Shown here one piece after another: positions 981-47,866 of a DNA stretch of 64,000 nt (within the stretch, counting starts at the first letter, position 1; each line of letters begins with the position of its first letter). The position numbers were made by a program, and so were the translations under genes. The DNA is from a virus, in the IMG/VR virus record IMGVR_UViG_3300008120_010803, positions 1-64,000 of that record, one strand, 5' to 3'. The notes beneath the pieces were generated by a model. The model made no database searches and was not told the origin of the DNA. It saw only the letters and a list, made by a program, of their open reading frames with translations.

Positions 981-2207
981 ATGCTAAAGATTTCTATATT
1001 CACTCCTACACATAATCCAATTCATTTACAAAGGCTATATGATAGCATAAAAACCCAAACCTACCAAAATTGGGAATGGGTTATTGTGCCAAATAATGGT
1101 GTAGAAATATCGTTAAGTCCTCCAGATGATAGAATAAAAATTTATCCTTGTGATCAATCTGGTAATATTGGGCTTTTGAAAAAATTTGCCTGCGAAAAGG
1201 CGACTGGTGATATTTTGGCAGAGGTTGATCATGATGACGAATTATTCTCAGATTGCTTGGAAGAAGTCGCAAAAGCTTTTCAAGACCCAACTATTGATTT
1301 TGCCTACTCAAACTGCGTTGATGTAGATAAAAACTGGAATTCACGCACATTTGGTCCAGACTTCGGCTGGAAGACCCGTCCATGCAACTACAAAGGCCGA
1401 CAACTCATACAAAATGTATCATTTCCTCCTGATGCAACTTCCATAAGCAAGATATGGTTTGCACCCAATCACATTCGTGCTTGGAGAGCAAATTTTTATC
1501 ATGGCATAGGAGGACACGACACATCTCTAGATGTTTGTGATGATCATGATATTGTTTGCAGAACATATATTCATGGAAAAATGTATCATATCAATAAGTG
1601 CCTATACTTATATCATCTACATGATGAAAACACATGCTATGGTGAAAAAAATGCTAAGATTCAAGAGATGACTCTTGACCTACATGATAAATACATCTAT
1701 CAAATAGTTGAAAAATGGTGTGACGAAAAAGGTCTCAAGAAAGTAGACTTATGTGGTGGTCATAGCAAGCCTTTGGGCTATACCAGCGTTGATATGCTGA
1801 ATGGTGATATCATAGCTGATTTAAACGAACGATGGCCGTTTGAAGATGGTGAAGTAGGTTTGTTCAGAGCACATGACGCACTAGAACACCTTAAAAATCC
1901 TATTCATACCATGAAAGAAGCATATCGTTGCTTGGCAGATAATGGTTGGTTTCTAACTATGACTCCATCAACAGACGGAAGAGGAGCATTCCAAGACCCA
2001 ACTCATGTTTCATTTTGGAATAGCAACAGTTTTTGGTACTATTGCAAATCCGATCAGGCAAGATACATAAACACTCCAGTTAGATTCCAGTTAAATAGAA
2101 TCAAAAACTTTTATCCAAATGATTTCTGCAAATTCCATGAGATCGTTTATGTTAAGGCCGATTTAGTTAAATTCACTTCAGATACCCCCGGACTCAAGGA
2201 AATCTAA
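981..2207 (+). CDS. GT2 glycosyltransferase fused to C-terminal SAM methyltransferase-like domain
   Basis: ISIFTPTHN, EVDHDD (DxD), CDDHD; C-terminal DLCGG, WPFEDG, HDALEH, AFQDPTH; ATG 981 follows AAGG. Confidence 0.85.
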   Translation: MLKISIFTPTHNPIHLQRLYDSIKTQTYQNWEWVIVPNNGVEISLSPPDDRIKIYPCDQSGNIGLLKKFACEKATGDILAEVDHDDELFSDCLEEVAKAFQDPTIDFAYSNCVDVDKNWNSRTFGPDFGWKTRPCNYKGRQLIQNVSFPPDATSISKIWFAPNHIRAWRANFYHGIGGHDTSLDVCDDHDIVCRTYIHGKMYHINKCLYLYHLHDENTCYGEKNAKIQEMTLDLHDKYIYQIVEKWCDEKGLKKVDLCGGHSKPLGYTSVDMLNGDIIADLNERWPFEDGEVGLFRAHDALEHLKNPIHTMKEAYRCLADNGWFLTMTPSTDGRGAFQDPTHVSFWNSNSFWYYCKSDQARYINTPVRFQLNRIKNFYPNDFCKFHEIVYVKADLVKFTSDTPGLKEI

Positions 2208-2581
2208 TGGATGTCAAAACACTAGAAGAACTACCTAAGACAGTAGTTTGCGATATTGATGGATGCATTTTTAAACATATGGGCAATCTACCAAATATGA
2301 TTTTGGGAACGCCTGAGATTTGTCCTAATGTAAAAGAACAATTCGATTTGTGGGACAAAAAGGCTTATAAAATTATCCTCCTTACTGGCAGAAGAGAAAG
2401 TATGAGAGATGTAACTGAAAGGCAACTACGGTCATTCGGGCTTTTCTGGGATGTTCTGGTTATGAATGCCACCAGAGGACAAAGAATTTTGGTGAATGAC
2501 ATCAAACCCGGAATAGACGGAAAGACAGCGGTGGCTCACAATTTAGAAAGAAATCAAGGGTTTGTCGAACTTATTGCTTGA
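2207..2581 (+). CDS. HAD-superfamily phosphatase
   Basis: CDIDG motif I, LLTGR motif II, LVND motif IV. Confidence 0.8.
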   Translation: MDVKTLEELPKTVVCDIDGCIFKHMGNLPNMILGTPEICPNVKEQFDLWDKKAYKIILLTGRRESMRDVTERQLRSFGLFWDVLVMNATRGQRILVNDIKPGIDGKTAVAHNLERNQGFVELIA

Positions 2582-40908: not shown

Positions 40909-41670
40909 TCAATAATTGAAACTTGCAATCCATTCAACATCCTCCCTTACATTCCGTATTTCATCTCTTTGAAATAAGATCAATCTCCAATACAATTCAT
41001 CCCAATCGACATTGTTTGGATGATTGACTGTTTTTTCTTTTTCTTGGTTAGACATCTTGTTTTGAATCTGTAGTTTTCTCATTTGCATTTCTGGACCCAT
41101 AGAACAAAATCCGTAATAAAATATCCATAAATCATAAAATGAGGGCTGATTAGGATAATGCCTTCCACCTTCAATCGGATATTCTATATTTTTATTGTGT
41201 ATGCTTCTGCTAGAACGAAAGCACATACTCAACATGTTGGTTCTATCCATCCAGTCTTTATATCCTGTGAAACATTGCTCATGTAAAGGCTTATTCTTGT
41301 CCAGTACAAAATTTCCGTTTACATCTATGAACACATAATTTCCTAGGTACTTTTGTTCTGGATCGGTTATGTTTAAAAGCTGTTTTGTATTGCCATACAG
41401 GAACTCAGTTGTATTCAAAGCCAGTTTCCATCCAGACACAGTTCTTTCATAGTACTCGACCTCTCTGTCTACTGATGCTGCATCAAAGTGCTTGTTTGTA
41501 GTTTTTACGATAGTCCATTCAGGGCATATTTCTTTTATGACTTCAACACTTCGATCTGTGCTGCCGTAATCTATTAGTATGGCATCGTCACAAATTCGCT
41601 TATGATGTTTACACCACCACGGGAGCAAATACTCTTCGTTGTAGAAATGACTTATTATTGTGAGTCCCAT
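40909..41670 (-). CDS. GT2-like glycosyltransferase, paralog of the 6364 C-terminal domain
   Basis: HFYNEEYLLPWWCKHH, IDYGSTDRS, LNTTEFL. Confidence 0.8.
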   Translation of the reverse strand: MGLTIISHFYNEEYLLPWWCKHHKRICDDAILIDYGSTDRSVEVIKEICPEWTIVKTTNKHFDAASVDREVEYYERTVSGWKLALNTTEFLYGNTKQLLNITDPEQKYLGNYVFIDVNGNFVLDKNKPLHEQCFTGYKDWMDRTNMLSMCFRSSRSIHNKNIEYPIEGGRHYPNQPSFYDLWIFYYGFCSMGPEMQMRKLQIQNKMSNQEKEKTVNHPNNVDWDELYWRLILFQRDEIRNVREDVEWIASFNY

Positions 41671-41732
41671 GATTGCCTCTTGAAATCCTCAAGAATTAAA
41701 TTATTATTGGATTTTTACCACAGGAAAAAAAC

Positions 41733-42779
41733 ATGTACAACTTCACGGATGAACAAAAAAATCTTATAGACTTTGTTTTAAAGGAATATAAACAACAACC
41801 ATATTTGACGCTTGGAGGCGTTGCTGGTTCGGGTAAATCAACTTGCCTTGCACACCTTCATAATAAACTTGCAAACTTTAAGGTGTGCGCTTACACCGGC
41901 AAAGCTGCAAATGTACTTAGAAAGAAAGGAATAGCAAACGCTGCCACAATACATTCCACTATATATGAGTATTACGATAATGAGGGAGAACTTGAATTTA
42001 GAAGAAAATTTAAAAATGAAATTGATTTTTCAGGACTGTTTGTTGATGAAGCCAGTATGGTAAGTGAAGATATATTTGATGATCTTTTAAGTTTTGGTGT
42101 TCCTATTATTTTTTTTGGTGATCATGGGCAGCTAGAGCCTGTGCAATCTAAATTTAATTTGATGAAAAGTCCCCAAGTTGTTCTTGAAACAATTCACCGT
42201 AATGCAAACACGATTGCTAAATTTGCTGATTTCCTTAGAAAAGGAAACGATGCCAAATCTTTTAAGGAATTTGATGACACCGTACAGTTATTGCCAAAGA
42301 GACTTGTAAAAACAGAAGATTTTACAAAAACTGATCAGGTCATATGTGCTTTTAATAAAACAAGAAATCTGATTAATAGAAAAGTCAGGGAGTTTCTCGG
42401 ATATGAAAAGACTGTGGTTAAGAATGAAAAGATTATATGCTTGAAAAATAATAAAAAACTTGGTATATTTAACGGGATGCAAGGAACAGTATTAAATACG
42501 GCTAGAAACATAATTACATTCAAGGATGATACCAACAATATCATATCTGTAAAAGCATTTATGCCTCAATTTGGGGTAGATAAGTTGCATGAATCTGCTA
42601 ATAACGAAAAGGATAAAGGTTATTTTGATTATGGATATTGTATCACTTGTCATAAGGCACAAGGTGATGAATGGAATAGAATCATCGTGATTGAGGAAAA
42701 GTGTGATCTTTGGGATCACAGAAGATGGGCATACACAGCTGCTTCAAGAGCTAAAACAAACATCGTATGGGCAATTTAA
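41733..42779 (+). CDS. SF1B helicase, Dda/RecD-like
   Basis: GVAGSGKS, VDEASM, GDHGQL.PV, TCHKAQG.E, YTAASRA. Confidence 0.9.
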   Translation: MYNFTDEQKNLIDFVLKEYKQQPYLTLGGVAGSGKSTCLAHLHNKLANFKVCAYTGKAANVLRKKGIANAATIHSTIYEYYDNEGELEFRRKFKNEIDFSGLFVDEASMVSEDIFDDLLSFGVPIIFFGDHGQLEPVQSKFNLMKSPQVVLETIHRNANTIAKFADFLRKGNDAKSFKEFDDTVQLLPKRLVKTEDFTKTDQVICAFNKTRNLINRKVREFLGYEKTVVKNEKIICLKNNKKLGIFNGMQGTVLNTARNIITFKDDTNNIISVKAFMPQFGVDKLHESANNEKDKGYFDYGYCITCHKAQGDEWNRIIVIEEKCDLWDHRRWAYTAASRAKTNIVWAI

Positions 42780-44512: not shown

Positions 44513-45337
44513 ATGCAAGAAAATATGACATTTATGGAATGGCTTGGTGTCCCCCCGGAACAAATGTTCGGTTTTGTGGGAAATTTCGGACCAAAAGCAA
44601 CTGAAAAAACAAAAGTTTATTCCGAAGAGCCTTTGGAACCGCTACAAGTGTCTCTCATTTTAGACGAATTAGGATGGCTCGGATCAATTAATAATAAAAA
44701 GCCTCAAAGATTGTTCGAAAATGTTATGAGCTACGGAGATGTTGCAGACAGAATGCAAGTTGTTGTATCTCCATATGGCTCTCTTAAAATTATATTAAGA
44801 AAAGTCGCAACCACTTTGGAGGGAAGCTACATACCACTTTGTTATTCAATATATCCACTTATTAATGATTATAATCATAATGGAGAAAATGATGATCATA
44901 TTGAAAATATGATAGCAAATAAAATTGCAGATAAGCTTAATGAAATGGATAAAAGAATGATGTTAGGTGGAGAACGAAATTTTGAAGGCACCAGAGAATT
45001 GGTTTTAGAAATGGCTCAACATGTGAGAGCAAATCATCCTAGGTGTATGCACTTTGAGGGTGTAATTCAAAATGGAGAAAATGATTACACAATATACTTG
45101 CAATATAATGGACAAGGTGTTGAGGCCCCATCTGCCAAAAGAGTTGAGCAGTTTGATATACATCTGAATTACGATAAGGATACTGGATTGATTCGTTGCT
45201 GGGCTAATGAAATTACTAGTCCTACAAGACAACATCTTTGGCAAGTCCAACCTAGTGAATGGGATGAATACTTTTCTCCTAAACAAAAAAATAGTGAGAT
45301 TGTTGAGTGTATAATGAACGCTCTATATACCTATTAA
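44513..45337 (+). CDS. hypothetical protein
   Basis: 274-aa ORF, starts MQENMTFMEWLG. Confidence 0.65.
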   Translation: MQENMTFMEWLGVPPEQMFGFVGNFGPKATEKTKVYSEEPLEPLQVSLILDELGWLGSINNKKPQRLFENVMSYGDVADRMQVVVSPYGSLKIILRKVATTLEGSYIPLCYSIYPLINDYNHNGENDDHIENMIANKIADKLNEMDKRMMLGGERNFEGTRELVLEMAQHVRANHPRCMHFEGVIQNGENDYTIYLQYNGQGVEAPSAKRVEQFDIHLNYDKDTGLIRCWANEITSPTRQHLWQVQPSEWDEYFSPKQKNSEIVECIMNALYTY

Positions 45338-46017
45338 AATTCAAAACCAAAATACTTATTGTACATATCTGATAATTCTTTGATGTCAAAGTCTTTTAGG
45401 TTTTCTATGTTCGATAGGTCTATTATATCAGTTCTTATTTGATCAGGTAATTTCTGAATCCATTTCGAGCAAAAAACATATAATGGACTTATTTTTTTAA
45501 GTATGACAAACCTCAAAATATTTGGAGATTCTTTAATATAATTTTCTAAAGAAACATCTTCTTTTAATAAATCTTTTATTGTACGCAGAGTAAGTTCAAA
45601 TTCACTAACCACATTGGCTTCGAGATGAGCATAAGCTACTTTTGTAGTTTGCCTTTTTTCCTTAATTAATTTTTTCCACACAGCCCATCGGGCCTTTGCT
45701 TTATCTCCATGCAACAATGAGGGATCAACAAGTATACGATGGCCTTCTTTTTGGAGTTTGTGTGCTATTTCTAGTTGTGCTCTCATATACAGAACAAATT
45801 GAAAACCACTCAATGTTTCTTTGTTTGCTTTGACAAACTTCAACATATGTTTGAAAACAATACTTTTTCGAATATCTCCTTTTTTTGCTACCCTTGGGTG
45901 GCAATAATTTGGTAAAATCTTTCTTGTTAATTCAATCCATTGACAACAAAGTTGGTAGGCAAGAATCTCATCTTGATTGAGTCCTAGTTCCAGAGCCATA
46001 TGTGGGTCGTATTTCAT
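45334..46017 (-). CDS. putative helicase loader, T4 gp59-like
   Basis: Size and pattern (AYQL..., AKARWAVWKK, ILRFVILKKISP) recall gp59; near DnaB gene. Confidence 0.5.
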   Translation of the reverse strand: MKYDPHMALELGLNQDEILAYQLCCQWIELTRKILPNYCHPRVAKKGDIRKSIVFKHMLKFVKANKETLSGFQFVLYMRAQLEIAHKLQKEGHRILVDPSLLHGDKAKARWAVWKKLIKEKRQTTKVAYAHLEANVVSEFELTLRTIKDLLKEDVSLENYIKESPNILRFVILKKISPLYVFCSKWIQKLPDQIRTDIIDLSNIENLKDFDIKELSDMYNKYFGFEF

Positions 46018-46024
46018 ACTTCCA

Positions 46025-46063
46025 AGTTTACACTTTACAAAATGTTTGGCAATAGACTATAAT
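46025..46063. promoter_or_regulatory. overlapping divergent sigma70-type promoters
   Basis: + strand TTTACA(46034)-18-TATAAT(46058); - strand TTGCCA-16-TAAACT (46052-46025). Confidence 0.65.
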
Positions 46064-46079
46064 GCATTTGTGATTCAAG

Positions 46080-46460
46080 TAGGGTGAAGTGTCAACCCAA
46101 ACGATGATCATTTTAAAAATTGAAAGAAGTGAATTTGTTAAAAATTCTATTCAATTGATTTTTAAAATCAAAACCTGTCGGAGCGGTACTCCCTGCTAAG
46201 CCCATTAGGTAATACGGGAACCTAATGACCGACTTGAAGACAAGGTGAGCCTGTGCTTCGCCAAAAACGGCAGGCAGTAATTAGTCTAACTAATTACAGG
46301 GGTGCAGGTTAAGCGTCTTAAAATCGACACATTAAACCAAGACTAAGTTTATATACTTAGCAATAAGGTTTAAGTAGCTGTGAGAAAACTTATTTAAGTT
46401 TTTTTTCTCACACCTCCTTAAGCCTGCCCCCCGGTTTGGTTTTATTTTTAAATGATTTAT
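46080..46460 (+). ncRNA. unannotated structured ncRNA or origin element upstream of PolA-like gene
   Basis: At least 9 complementary helix pairs, some nested and long-range, with G-U pairs; ORF-free; GC-enriched core. Confidence 0.7.
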
Positions 46461-46537
46461 AATAAGCCAAATTTTAGTTTGTTTTATTGTGCCGTTTTTG
46501 TATGCTTATTGGATTCCCTTCTTTATAGGAATATTCC

Positions 46538-47866
46538 ATGATTGACTTGGAAGCCTTATGCGCTGAGTTTTTAAGTGTTGGTTCCAAAGAGCCTATTTTA
46601 TTTTTAGACTGGTCCCCTTCTGATCCTGATTCAACTACCTTGGTTAATTTGGCCCTTAAAATTCGTTTACAGAGCATTTCTGGCTATAGTCGTACTCTGG
46701 ACCTGAATTCGGAAAATTCCTTTTCTATTCTGCGTTTAATCGAGTCTGTTTTTTCTTCTAAGAAAATTTTTATACTTGGATATAATTTTAAATCTTTATT
46801 TTCTTATTATCGTCGTGTCTGTCGATCTGAACTGGTTTTGACTAATGTAATTGATCTTTTTTGGTACGAGTCTTATAGGTCAATTGAATCTAGTAAGGGT
46901 AATATGAATTTGGGCTTATCTAATTTTAAATCTCTGATAAAAGATGCAGAAACATACAAGCTATATTCAAGTTACTATCGTGATTTAATAAGCAAAGTTG
47001 TTCCATTCATGGAATCTTTTCCTATATTGAATGATGATACTGGAACTATAGTCTATAGTAATTATAACATTGAGGGGCAAGAGAATGGGAGGCTCTCATG
47101 TTCTTGCAATAAGAAGAATGTTTTCAATCCACATTCTTTAGGAGAAGAGAAGAAAAATCTTTTATTTTATAGTTCGAATTACAAGTATTTTATGCAATTC
47201 GACTATCGGAACATGGAAGTTGCGGTTTTGGCTGAATTGTCTGAAGACTCCGAGCTTCTTGATATTGTAAAGTCTCCTGATAATAATGTATATTCAAAGA
47301 TATTTGAAAAGGTTACTGGGGTAAAGAATCACGAAGATGCAAAAAATTTGGGTAAAAAAATATTTCTCCCGCTTATATATGGGCAGACCAAGAATGGCCT
47401 ATCTAAGTCATTAGACATATCAATAGATCAGGCAGAAATATATTTTAATAACGCCAAAAAATACTTCAAGAAAAGTTTTGATTATGTTGAAGCTGCACAA
47501 AATGAGGCTTCTTCTAAGGGTTATCTTGAAGACTGTTTCAGGAGAAAAAGATATTTCATAGATGGGGAATCATATAAGGCAAGGAATTTTATAATACAAT
47601 CTCCTTCTGCTTTAATTTGTTTGGAATCGTTGTTAAAATTGTATAGAGAAGCTCAAGATATTTTCGCTGTTGCGTTTCATGTGCATGACGGATATTTCTT
47701 GGCAATTAAGAAAGACAGCATACAAGAAGCTTTTTATAGTGCAAAAAAGGCTCTTGAAGGTAAGTTGAACCTGATGCCAAATTTACAGTTAAAAACAACT
47801 GCAAAGTTGGGAAAAACGCTGGATAAAATGGTTTTACTTGAGAAAAGAAAAGAAGGTGTAATTTGA
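46538..47866 (+). CDS. family A DNA polymerase, thumb-less with degenerate 3'-5' exonuclease domain
   Basis: NGRLS, motif A FDYRNME, motif B K...K....IYG, NFIIQS, motif C HVHDG. Confidence 0.85.
   Translation: MIDLEALCAEFLSVGSKEPILFLDWSPSDPDSTTLVNLALKIRLQSISGYSRTLDLNSENSFSILRLIESVFSSKKIFILGYNFKSLFSYYRRVCRSELVLTNVIDLFWYESYRSIESSKGNMNLGLSNFKSLIKDAETYKLYSSYYRDLISKVVPFMESFPILNDDTGTIVYSNYNIEGQENGRLSCSCNKKNVFNPHSLGEEKKNLLFYSSNYKYFMQFDYRNMEVAVLAELSEDSELLDIVKSPDNNVYSKIFEKVTGVKNHEDAKNLGKKIFLPLIYGQTKNGLSKSLDISIDQAEIYFNNAKKYFKKSFDYVEAAQNEASSKGYLEDCFRRKRYFIDGESYKARNFIIQSPSALICLESLLKLYREAQDIFAVAFHVHDGYFLAIKKDSIQEAFYSAKKALEGKLNLMPNLQLKTTAKLGKTLDKMVLLEKRKEGVI

Follow-up and report, generated by a model that had tools for sequence, protein, structure and literature searches.

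Large RNAs with a conserved tertiary structure are rare, and most of them have proved to be ribozymes, riboswitches or the cores of ribonucleoproteins (RNPs). For viruses, a catalogue of about ten thousand candidate structured RNAs exists (PMC10690425). Reduced family A DNA polymerases have been reported from Immutovirus-like phages, in which thumb-truncated, exonuclease-dead second polymerases (divPolA1) head replication blocks; the paper that describes them mentions no RNA (Yutin et al. 2024, PMC11348598). The present analysis concerns a 64,000-nt stretch of viral DNA, referred to as the window, which comprises positions 1 to 64,000 of the 80-kb IMG/VR virus record IMGVR_UViG_3300008120_010803. 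The CheckV completeness of this record is 15%, and the record is therefore a fragment of a very large phage. The element under study lies in a 520-nt gap of the window (46018–46537), between a 227-aa open reading frame (ORF) on the minus strand and the gene of a short family A DNA polymerase (PolA) on the plus strand. Judged by the comparison of ten natural copies, it is a real, doubly pseudoknotted RNA with about twelve helices. The phages that carry it form a clade of uncultivated freshwater viruses, in which the RNA is linked to the replication module and to an unusually reduced family A polymerase. Nearly all sequencing runs in which the window sequence occurs are DNA metagenomes of freshwater and lakes, and the genomes of the clade are estimated at roughly 400–550 kb.

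Fold of the RNA and its covariation

The fold was derived from ten homologous copies, namely that of the window and nine others (L021, L003, L013, L022, L043, L025, L026, L004 and L042), by means of fixed offsets from invariant anchors and of pair counts on an unedited MAFFT alignment (A4). On A4, 87.8% of 523 cells are standard pairs, as against 31–47% when the 3' partners are slid by one to three columns. Both sides are changed in 23 of 53 pairs, compared with 13.5 ± 2.1 in shuffles, of which 0 of 500 reach 23, and the covariation score is 0.347 as against 0.169 in the shuffles. Eight helices are supported by compensatory changes across the ten copies. In the fixed-offset tables, the helices P2, P3 and P6 and the pseudoknots PK1 and PK2 are essentially fully paired; the low values of P2 and of the P9 base in the A4 table are alignment artefacts, and in the correct register all P2 cells pair. 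An earlier, sequence-only reading of the window had placed a novel structured plus-strand RNA here, with the expectation that it would fold better than shuffled controls and covary among homologs. That proposal is supported by the ten copies, in which covariation is strong.

With respect to folding energy, the plus strand of 46150–46460 reaches −96.8 kcal/mol, compared with −67.5 ± 4.9 kcal/mol for dinucleotide shuffles (z = −5.9), in agreement with that expectation. The minus strand of the same stretch folds equally well (z = −6.2), and equal folding of both strands in silico would suit an element that acts as DNA, through origin hairpins or cruciforms, and not as RNA. Such a role is regarded as highly improbable: the G-U pair that never varies and the U-G pairs that do are acceptable in a plus-strand RNA only, since they would be A-C mismatches on the opposite strand, two pseudoknots covary, and a conserved promoter lies directly upstream. 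The plus strand, which had been proposed from the start, is fixed by the direction of this promoter and by G-U and U-G pairs, which P3 contains in invariant form and which are common in P6 and H0.

The long-range architecture, in contrast, differs from the one first drawn. The strings quoted in the sequence-only reading all lie where it had placed them, and its local hairpins GTCGG/CCGAC, AGCGG/CTGCT and CATTAGGT/ACCTAATG, together with those at 46277–97, 46343–60 and 46379–46412, reappear in the ten-homolog comparison; TTAAACC/GGTTTAA holds within the window's own lineage. Its three non-local helices, GCCTG/CAGGC, GGGGTGCAGGTTAAG/CTTAAGCCTGCCCCC (46299–313/46417–31) and a closing stem 46164–75/46433–43, are jointly 72.4% paired on A4, compared with 72.3% in shuffles, and have a covariation score of 0.113 as against 0.118, with 324 of 500 shuffles reaching 0.113. 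The bases of these helices belong to P6, PK2 and the P9 base (CTTAAG, 46417–22), and P6, P5, PK1 and PK2 take the place of the single nested fold with its 12-bp closing stem and its long-range helix of 15 bp. The earlier observation is thus partly confirmed, in that the element and its local hairpins are real and the long-range architecture is replaced. From the covariation, the conserved fold is pseudoknotted twice and has no conserved terminal closing stem.

At the 5' end of the fold, all of which is on the plus strand, lies the hairpin H0 (46082–46098), a part of the RNA that was absent from the first description. Its stem GGGU/ACCC (46082–85/46095–98) is 100% paired, with four pair types at the closing pair and three at the inner pair among the ten copies. 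Its conserved 9-nt loop GAAGUGUCA contains the 5' strand of PK1, GUGUC (46089–46093), whose partner GACAC is located at 46326–46330. The five pairs of PK1 are 100% paired and three of them are changed on both sides; the variants include UUGUC/GACAA in L013 and GCAUC/GAUGU in L025. H0 is followed by H1 (46110–46168), a variable A/U-rich hairpin which is predicted there in all ten homologs despite differing sequences, and by the single strand AAAACC (46170–46175), of which AAACC (46171–75) is present in every copy. MAFFT displaces AAACC by one or two columns in L013, L004 and L042.

Next comes a three-way junction (46177–46233), in which P2 (46177–81/46229–33) encloses P3 and P4. P3 (46182–86/46193–97, loop UACUCC) contains the invariant G-U pair and is 100% paired on A4, and P4 (46203–10/46220–27, loop AAUACGGGA) is 98.8% paired. 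At fixed offsets, all cells of P2 and P3 pair, with two to three pair types in every column of P2; P4 is fully paired in seven of the ten, and the other three (L022, L043 and L025) each have one or two mismatches inside it.

The junction leads into an arm formed by P5, P6 and P7. P5 pairs AAGAC (46237–46241) with GUCUU (46315–46319) and reads AAGAU/AUCUU, GAGA/UCUC, UAGAU/AUCUA or CAGA/UCUG in homologs, with four different closing pairs. Adjoining it are two conserved internal-loop strands: AAGGUGAG (46242–46249), whose AGGU is invariant in alignments A4 and A5, and UUAAGC (46309–46314), where GGUU is invariant and which, with the preceding GG, may pair with CUUAAGCC (46417–24). P6 joins CCUGUGCUUC (46250–46259; CCTGTGCTTC in the DNA) to GGGGUGCAGG (46299–46308; GGGGTGCAGG in the DNA). 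Its sequence changes in almost every homolog and 8–10 bp are retained, with three to four pair types per column and both-side changes in six of nine pairs. The arm ends in P7 (46277–46297), a variable hairpin found in all ten copies. In L004 (2660–2770) and L042, P7 carries a branched insertion of about 90 nt, which marks it as a site of tolerated expansion. Between P6 and P7 lies the 5' strand of PK2, GGCAGG (46269–46274), whose partner CCUGCC is found at 46423–46428. PK2 is 100% paired and reads GGCGGG/CCCGCC in four homologs and GGCUGG/CCAGCC in L026.

P8 is a hairpin (46343–48/46355–60) present in 10/10 copies, which in the window carries the lineage-specific extension UUAAACC/GGUUUAA (46332–46373 in all); L004, L042 and L026 have the analogue GUUUU/GAAAC. 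P9 (46369–46422) is a long A/U-rich hairpin. Its upper stem (46379–88/46403–12) covaries (UGGAAGAAA/UUUCUUCCA), and so does its base UUUAAG/CUUAAG (UUCAAG/CUUGAA, CCAAG/CUUGG, UCUAG/UUAGA). In seven independent single-sequence folds the last hairpin is closed by this base, in the forms UCAAG/CUUGA, CCAAG/CUUGG and UCUAG/UUAGA. The 3' strand of P9 reads CACCUCCUUA (46411–46420) and is paired to a purine-rich, Shine-Dalgarno-like strand; CCNCCUU is retained in eight of the ten homologs, and L003 has CACUCCUU. The RNA ends in a conserved tail, CCCC-RGU, followed by a U-rich run in the window lineage (46429–46449). In all ten copies the tail consists of CCCC or UCCC and then GGU, AGU or GCU (the last in L021), and the sequence beyond it is not conserved. 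Partners were sought for AAACC, the CCCC tail, the GGGA loop and AGGU, and none was established; all four are invariant, so that covariation is uninformative. The same applies to a loop contact TCCC/GGGA that had been suggested earlier, since it lies in invariant bases.

Promoter, transcript and the proposed leader

The RNA is preceded by a sigma70-like promoter, TTTACA-18-TATAAT (46034–46063, plus strand; −10 at 46058–63), which scores 11/12 in the promoter scan and has the same position and distance before the RNA in each of five copies scanned (window, L021, L003, L004 and L026). Transcription is inferred to start near 46070, where it had been expected before. With the 5' end placed from this promoter and the 3' end uncertain (46435–46449), the whole structured RNA would span 46070–46449 on the plus strand and be about 365 nt long; its conserved core runs from H0 (46082) to CCCC-GGU (46435). 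In the same five copies, no hairpin-plus-U terminator was found after the RNA, and the stretch from there to PolA has no promoter that keeps its position from copy to copy; these scans cover consensus promoters and simple hairpin terminators only. Two promoter-like sites on the minus strand (46171–46144 and 46052–46025) more plausibly serve the 227-aa gene than an antisense regulator. The ORF list contains none of at least 40 aa in 46018–46473, and conserved small ORFs were not found inside the RNA. The spacer between the RNA and PolA diverges even between the window and its closest relative, L021, in which the RNA core is almost identical, and hence the RNA is considered a discrete selected unit.

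Among the listed sequencing runs that contain the window sequence, none is recorded as RNA. One wastewater run (X20), labelled RNA-Seq and rated as probably DNA, contains two 151-nt contigs of a relative as its only pieces on the RNA, at 46134–46263 and 46279–46428, and a third piece that touches 38 nt inside PolA. The coverage of the RNA in X20 may reflect conservation and not expression, and neither this coverage nor the lack of recorded RNA runs was counted as evidence.

PolA is the first gene of an overlap-coupled block that continues with a 185-aa ORF, a DnaB-like helicase and a UvsY-like protein, the latter two assigned from PHROG matches. According to the ORF coordinates, the downstream genes overlap by 4–11 nt, as in an operon. 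As the most economical reading, it is tentatively proposed that the RNA is a structured leader of this PolA-DnaB-UvsY replication operon, acting in cis; the proposal, though the likeliest of those considered, falls short of an even chance. It is made because the promoter position is kept, because neither a terminator nor a recurrent second promoter was seen in the five copies, and because the downstream genes overlap. From these observations we infer co-transcription of the RNA with PolA, and any regulatory role likewise. Host RNA polymerase would start at the conserved early-type promoter. The RNA folds into, in order, the 5' hairpin, the variable hairpin, the three-way junction P2-P3-P4, the P5-P6-P7 arm, P8 and P9, and the fold is locked by PK1 (H0 loop to GACAC) and PK2 (GGCAGG to CCUGCC). 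The transcript would continue, so that an mRNA for PolA, the 185-aa ORF, the DnaB-like helicase and the UvsY-like protein would carry a structured 5' leader of about 470 nt. By binding a factor, this leader might serve as a cis platform and so determine how the operon transcript is expressed or processed, or how stable it is.

A possible switch is seen in the pairing of GG-UUAAG (46307–13) with CUUAA-G-CC (46417–24), which every one of the ten copies can form, at the expense of the P6 end, the PK2 start and the P9 base. The 3' strand involved (CUURRN-CC) has a choice of two 5' partners in 10/10 copies, an arrangement typical of switching leaders. The changes in this second pairing are one-sided and wobble-compatible only, and it may represent an alternative conformer or a coincidence of similar strands.

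Several points weigh against a leader. This alternative pairing, kept by one-sided wobble changes, does no better than shuffles, and no expression platform is visible. The 5' end of the RNA is placed from the promoter only and its 3' end is uncertain, and in the window lineage a closing helix followed by UUUUAUUUUU (46440–49) could terminate transcription. Weak −10-like sequences are present in the spacers, and the scans were confined to promoters of consensus type and to terminators that are simple hairpins. Conservation of the RNA stops about 95 nt short of the PolA start codon, with no contact to the ribosome-binding site. At 365 nt and with two pseudoknots, the RNA also exceeds most riboswitches in size, and known phage translational operators by far.

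The short polymerase, neighbouring genes and distribution

The PolA gene (46538–47866, plus strand) encodes a protein of 442 aa with a match to PF00476 (E = 8e-32). The protein aligns to Klentaq only over residues 242–526 (fingers and palm, motifs A–C), and its N-terminal remainder of 145 residues is too short for a normal exonuclease-like domain plus thumb. PolA is an unusually reduced family A polymerase. This bears on a second explanation, which is possible though doubtful: the RNA could be a stand-alone or processed stable RNA that acts in trans with the short polymerase, either as an RNP cofactor replacing the missing DNA-gripping parts or as a scaffold for replication proteins. The RNA is strictly linked to the short PolA and co-oriented with it in ten contigs, 145 N-terminal residues stand in place of the exonuclease-like domain plus thumb of Taq, and the conservation of tertiary structure is on the scale of ribozymes and RNP RNAs; encoding beside PolA would also help the two to assemble, and the X20 pieces across 46134–46428 would add at most a weak hint. 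Gene order, however, could be simple inheritance, and binding of the RNA to PolA is conjecture. The absence of a terminator after the RNA in the five scanned copies likewise speaks against a separate molecule. A distant PolA homolog (32.5% identity) in a 595-kb uncultured phage (LR756511.1; L046, 1091–4236) has a 387-aa ORF upstream and not an RNA gap. This ORF ends in an IHDS motif, which looks polymerase-like, and it is preceded by a divergent 229-aa ORF.

In a stronger form of the same idea, the RNA would be a subunit of the replication machinery, binding the thumb-poor, exonuclease-less PolA and supplying either a grip on the primer-template or its own 3' end as a primer at an adjacent origin. 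This is considered unlikely; if true, it would amount to an RNA-dependent initiation RNP for a DNA phage, and if the RNA works with the polymerase in any manner, a new way to start or support DNA synthesis would be at hand.

Gene orientation has its main switch near 41.7 kb (41670–41733), where cumulative GC skew also reaches its minimum, and the RNA lies about 4.4 kb downstream of that point and not at it. In an explanation by analogy with RNA II of the plasmid ColE1, the folded transcript would guide its C-rich 3' part GCCUGCCCCCCGG into a stable hybrid with the template, which would be processed and then extended by PolA, and the A/T-rich stretch after 46435 would be the origin. The locus combines a strong promoter with a long structured RNA and a polymerase of family A, as is established for ColE1; it is inside the replication module, 4.4 kb from the strand switch; and in the window lineage an A/T-rich tract comes after the conserved G/C-rich 3' segment. 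Such a primer or origin activator is nevertheless improbable. The C-rich segment is bound in the covarying RNA-RNA pseudoknot PK2, an A/T-rich or U-rich tract is absent from L004, L042, L026 and L013, neither iterons nor a clear antisense regulator were seen, and the GC-skew minimum is not at the element.

On the other side of the RNA, the divergent 227-aa ORF (45334–46017, minus strand) always adjoins it and has no assigned function. The protein belongs with at least 20 homologous clusters, none of which has a functional name, and gave no Pfam, PHROG or PDB-sequence match. Its AlphaFold (AF2) model is all-alpha (pLDDT 84.7) and found no Foldseek match at E ≤ 0.001. The best VIA-align result (Z = 6.4) is to AAA+ lid-like helical bundles, which is within noise for helical proteins.

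The nine other copies were found by searches that used the polymerase, DNA patterns taken from conserved blocks, or a profile built on the 227-aa protein; they come from IMG/VR, JGI metagenomes and one contig of a GTDB metagenome-assembled genome, and contigs of 15 further homologs of the 227-aa protein fall outside this survey. Gene order and orientation (227-aa ORF, promoter and RNA, PolA) are alike in all ten copies, with the RNA on the PolA strand and 60–130 nt upstream of it. The GTDB contig, L042 (CAYVOK010000001.1, 271 kb), is filed under an Acidimicrobiaceae metagenome-assembled genome and carries the same block of 227-aa ORF, RNA and PolA; this contig could be a phage sequence binned in error, or it could point to the host. 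Four further candidates (L006, L007, L009 and L010), obtained with two early patterns, were discarded after reading as chance matches in coding DNA. With blastn, the gap matched none of 50,697 phage records.

A covariance model of the 5' domain (R1) was built from the ten copies. It scores the window copy, itself one of its ten training sequences, at 112.6 bits (E = 2e-29). The window copy has all the helices and contains the marks by which the family is defined, namely the P2-P3-P4 junction with the CGG-UAC-N-CCCUG and GGGA loops, AGA-NN-AGGU-NN-GCC, P6, PK1 and PK2. Beside the distant homologs of the 227-aa protein (31–35% identity) in L028–L041, which are other large phages, R1 has no match. 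One of these, L041 (a 381-kb IMG/VR contig, about 1750–2500, minus strand), has such a homolog, a hairpin-rich gap of about 600 nt and a PolA-like N-terminus. The gap looks different from the window RNA and is not matched by R1; it may hold a diverged or analogous RNA at the same position.

Comparison with described RNAs and polymerases

The whole window was compared with Rfam 15, and no match was found at gathering thresholds. At E ≤ 10, only chance matches of the miRNA type were obtained on the P9 hairpin, far below their thresholds, in line with the earlier expectation that no described family would fit. ARAGORN found neither a tRNA nor a tmRNA in the window, and no RNase P model of Rfam matches at E ≤ 10, so that the earlier exclusion of these three classes stands; the conserved blocks of the RNA are also unlike CR-I and CR-V of RNase P. 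A group I intron was rejected on three grounds: RF00028 has no match at E ≤ 10; there are no exons, since the element is driven by a promoter of its own in a gap between two complete, divergent genes; and its helix strands do not follow the order P3-P4-P6-P7-P3'-P8-P7'. Known riboswitch classes were rejected likewise, as no riboswitch model of Rfam matches and no terminator was seen in the five scanned copies. The Rfam RNAI model has no match to the window. Full-text literature searches gave no description of this RNA, the viral structured-RNA catalogue (PMC10690425) not having been compared. It is concluded from these comparisons that the RNA probably is a sequence and structure family without a described relative, where newness covers the family and not a mechanism. 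Whatever its function, the outcome is a covariation-backed fold of about twelve helices and two pseudoknots, with ten natural variants.

The failure of these models also touches the view that the RNA has nothing to do with the polymerase and is placed here merely because the gap is free. It would then be an ornate phage RNA, either one that self-assembles in the manner of GOLLD and ROOL or a decoy or sponge aimed at factors or defences of the host. In favour of this view, the 3' strand of P9, CACCUCCUUA, is identical to the 3' end of 16S rRNA (the anti-Shine-Dalgarno sequence), and its partner strand is Shine-Dalgarno-like. Phages and prophages are also known to have large ornate RNAs without assigned function (PMC12286853). 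This view is nonetheless unlikely, given that position and orientation relative to PolA are constant in 10/10 copies and that GOLLD (RF01998), ROOL (RF03087) and the other large-RNA models of Rfam give no match even at E ≤ 10. GOLLD and ROOL resemble the window RNA in being phage-borne and several hundred nt long; they too are heavily structured, have tertiary contacts that are conserved and lack an assigned biochemical function. They differ in that the window RNA is smaller (about 365 nt), is strictly linked to a polymerase gene and matches them neither in sequence nor in structure.

The divPolA1 enzymes are similar to PolA of the window in being family A polymerases of roughly 440 aa with a reduced thumb and no exonuclease, which head a block of replication genes. 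Their sequences are distant, however; the immuto_3-5A enzyme shares only 21% identity with PolA over 103 residues. The immuto_3-5A record starts at the PolA gene and has 56 nt between its last annotated gene and the record end, and there is therefore no room for such an RNA upstream. The divPolA1 phages are not close relatives and have no such RNA upstream.

The RNA II of ColE1 is likewise a long folded RNA with a dedicated promoter, a family A polymerase functionally or physically adjacent and a G/C-rich segment near the 3' end. In the window locus, unlike ColE1, no clear equivalent of RNA I was seen, the C-rich 3' segment is locked in a covarying pseudoknot, and there is no homology between the two. 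Large riboswitch and T-box leaders are also located 5' of operons and contain conserved junctions and loops, as well as one strand with two possible partners. The window RNA is larger than known aptamers, matches none of the classes and has no identified terminator or platform that would sequester a ribosome-binding site.

The hairpin of T4 gene 43 and the pseudoknot leader of T4 gene 32 are structured leaders of replication genes, and the window module is T4-like in that UvsY-like and DnaB-like genes are nearby. The T4 operators measure tens of nt and overlap the ribosome-binding site, whereas the RNA described here, of about 365 nt and some twelve helices, stops about 95 nt short of the start codon. 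Should it regulate the operon, it would represent a new and unusually elaborate kind of phage leader.

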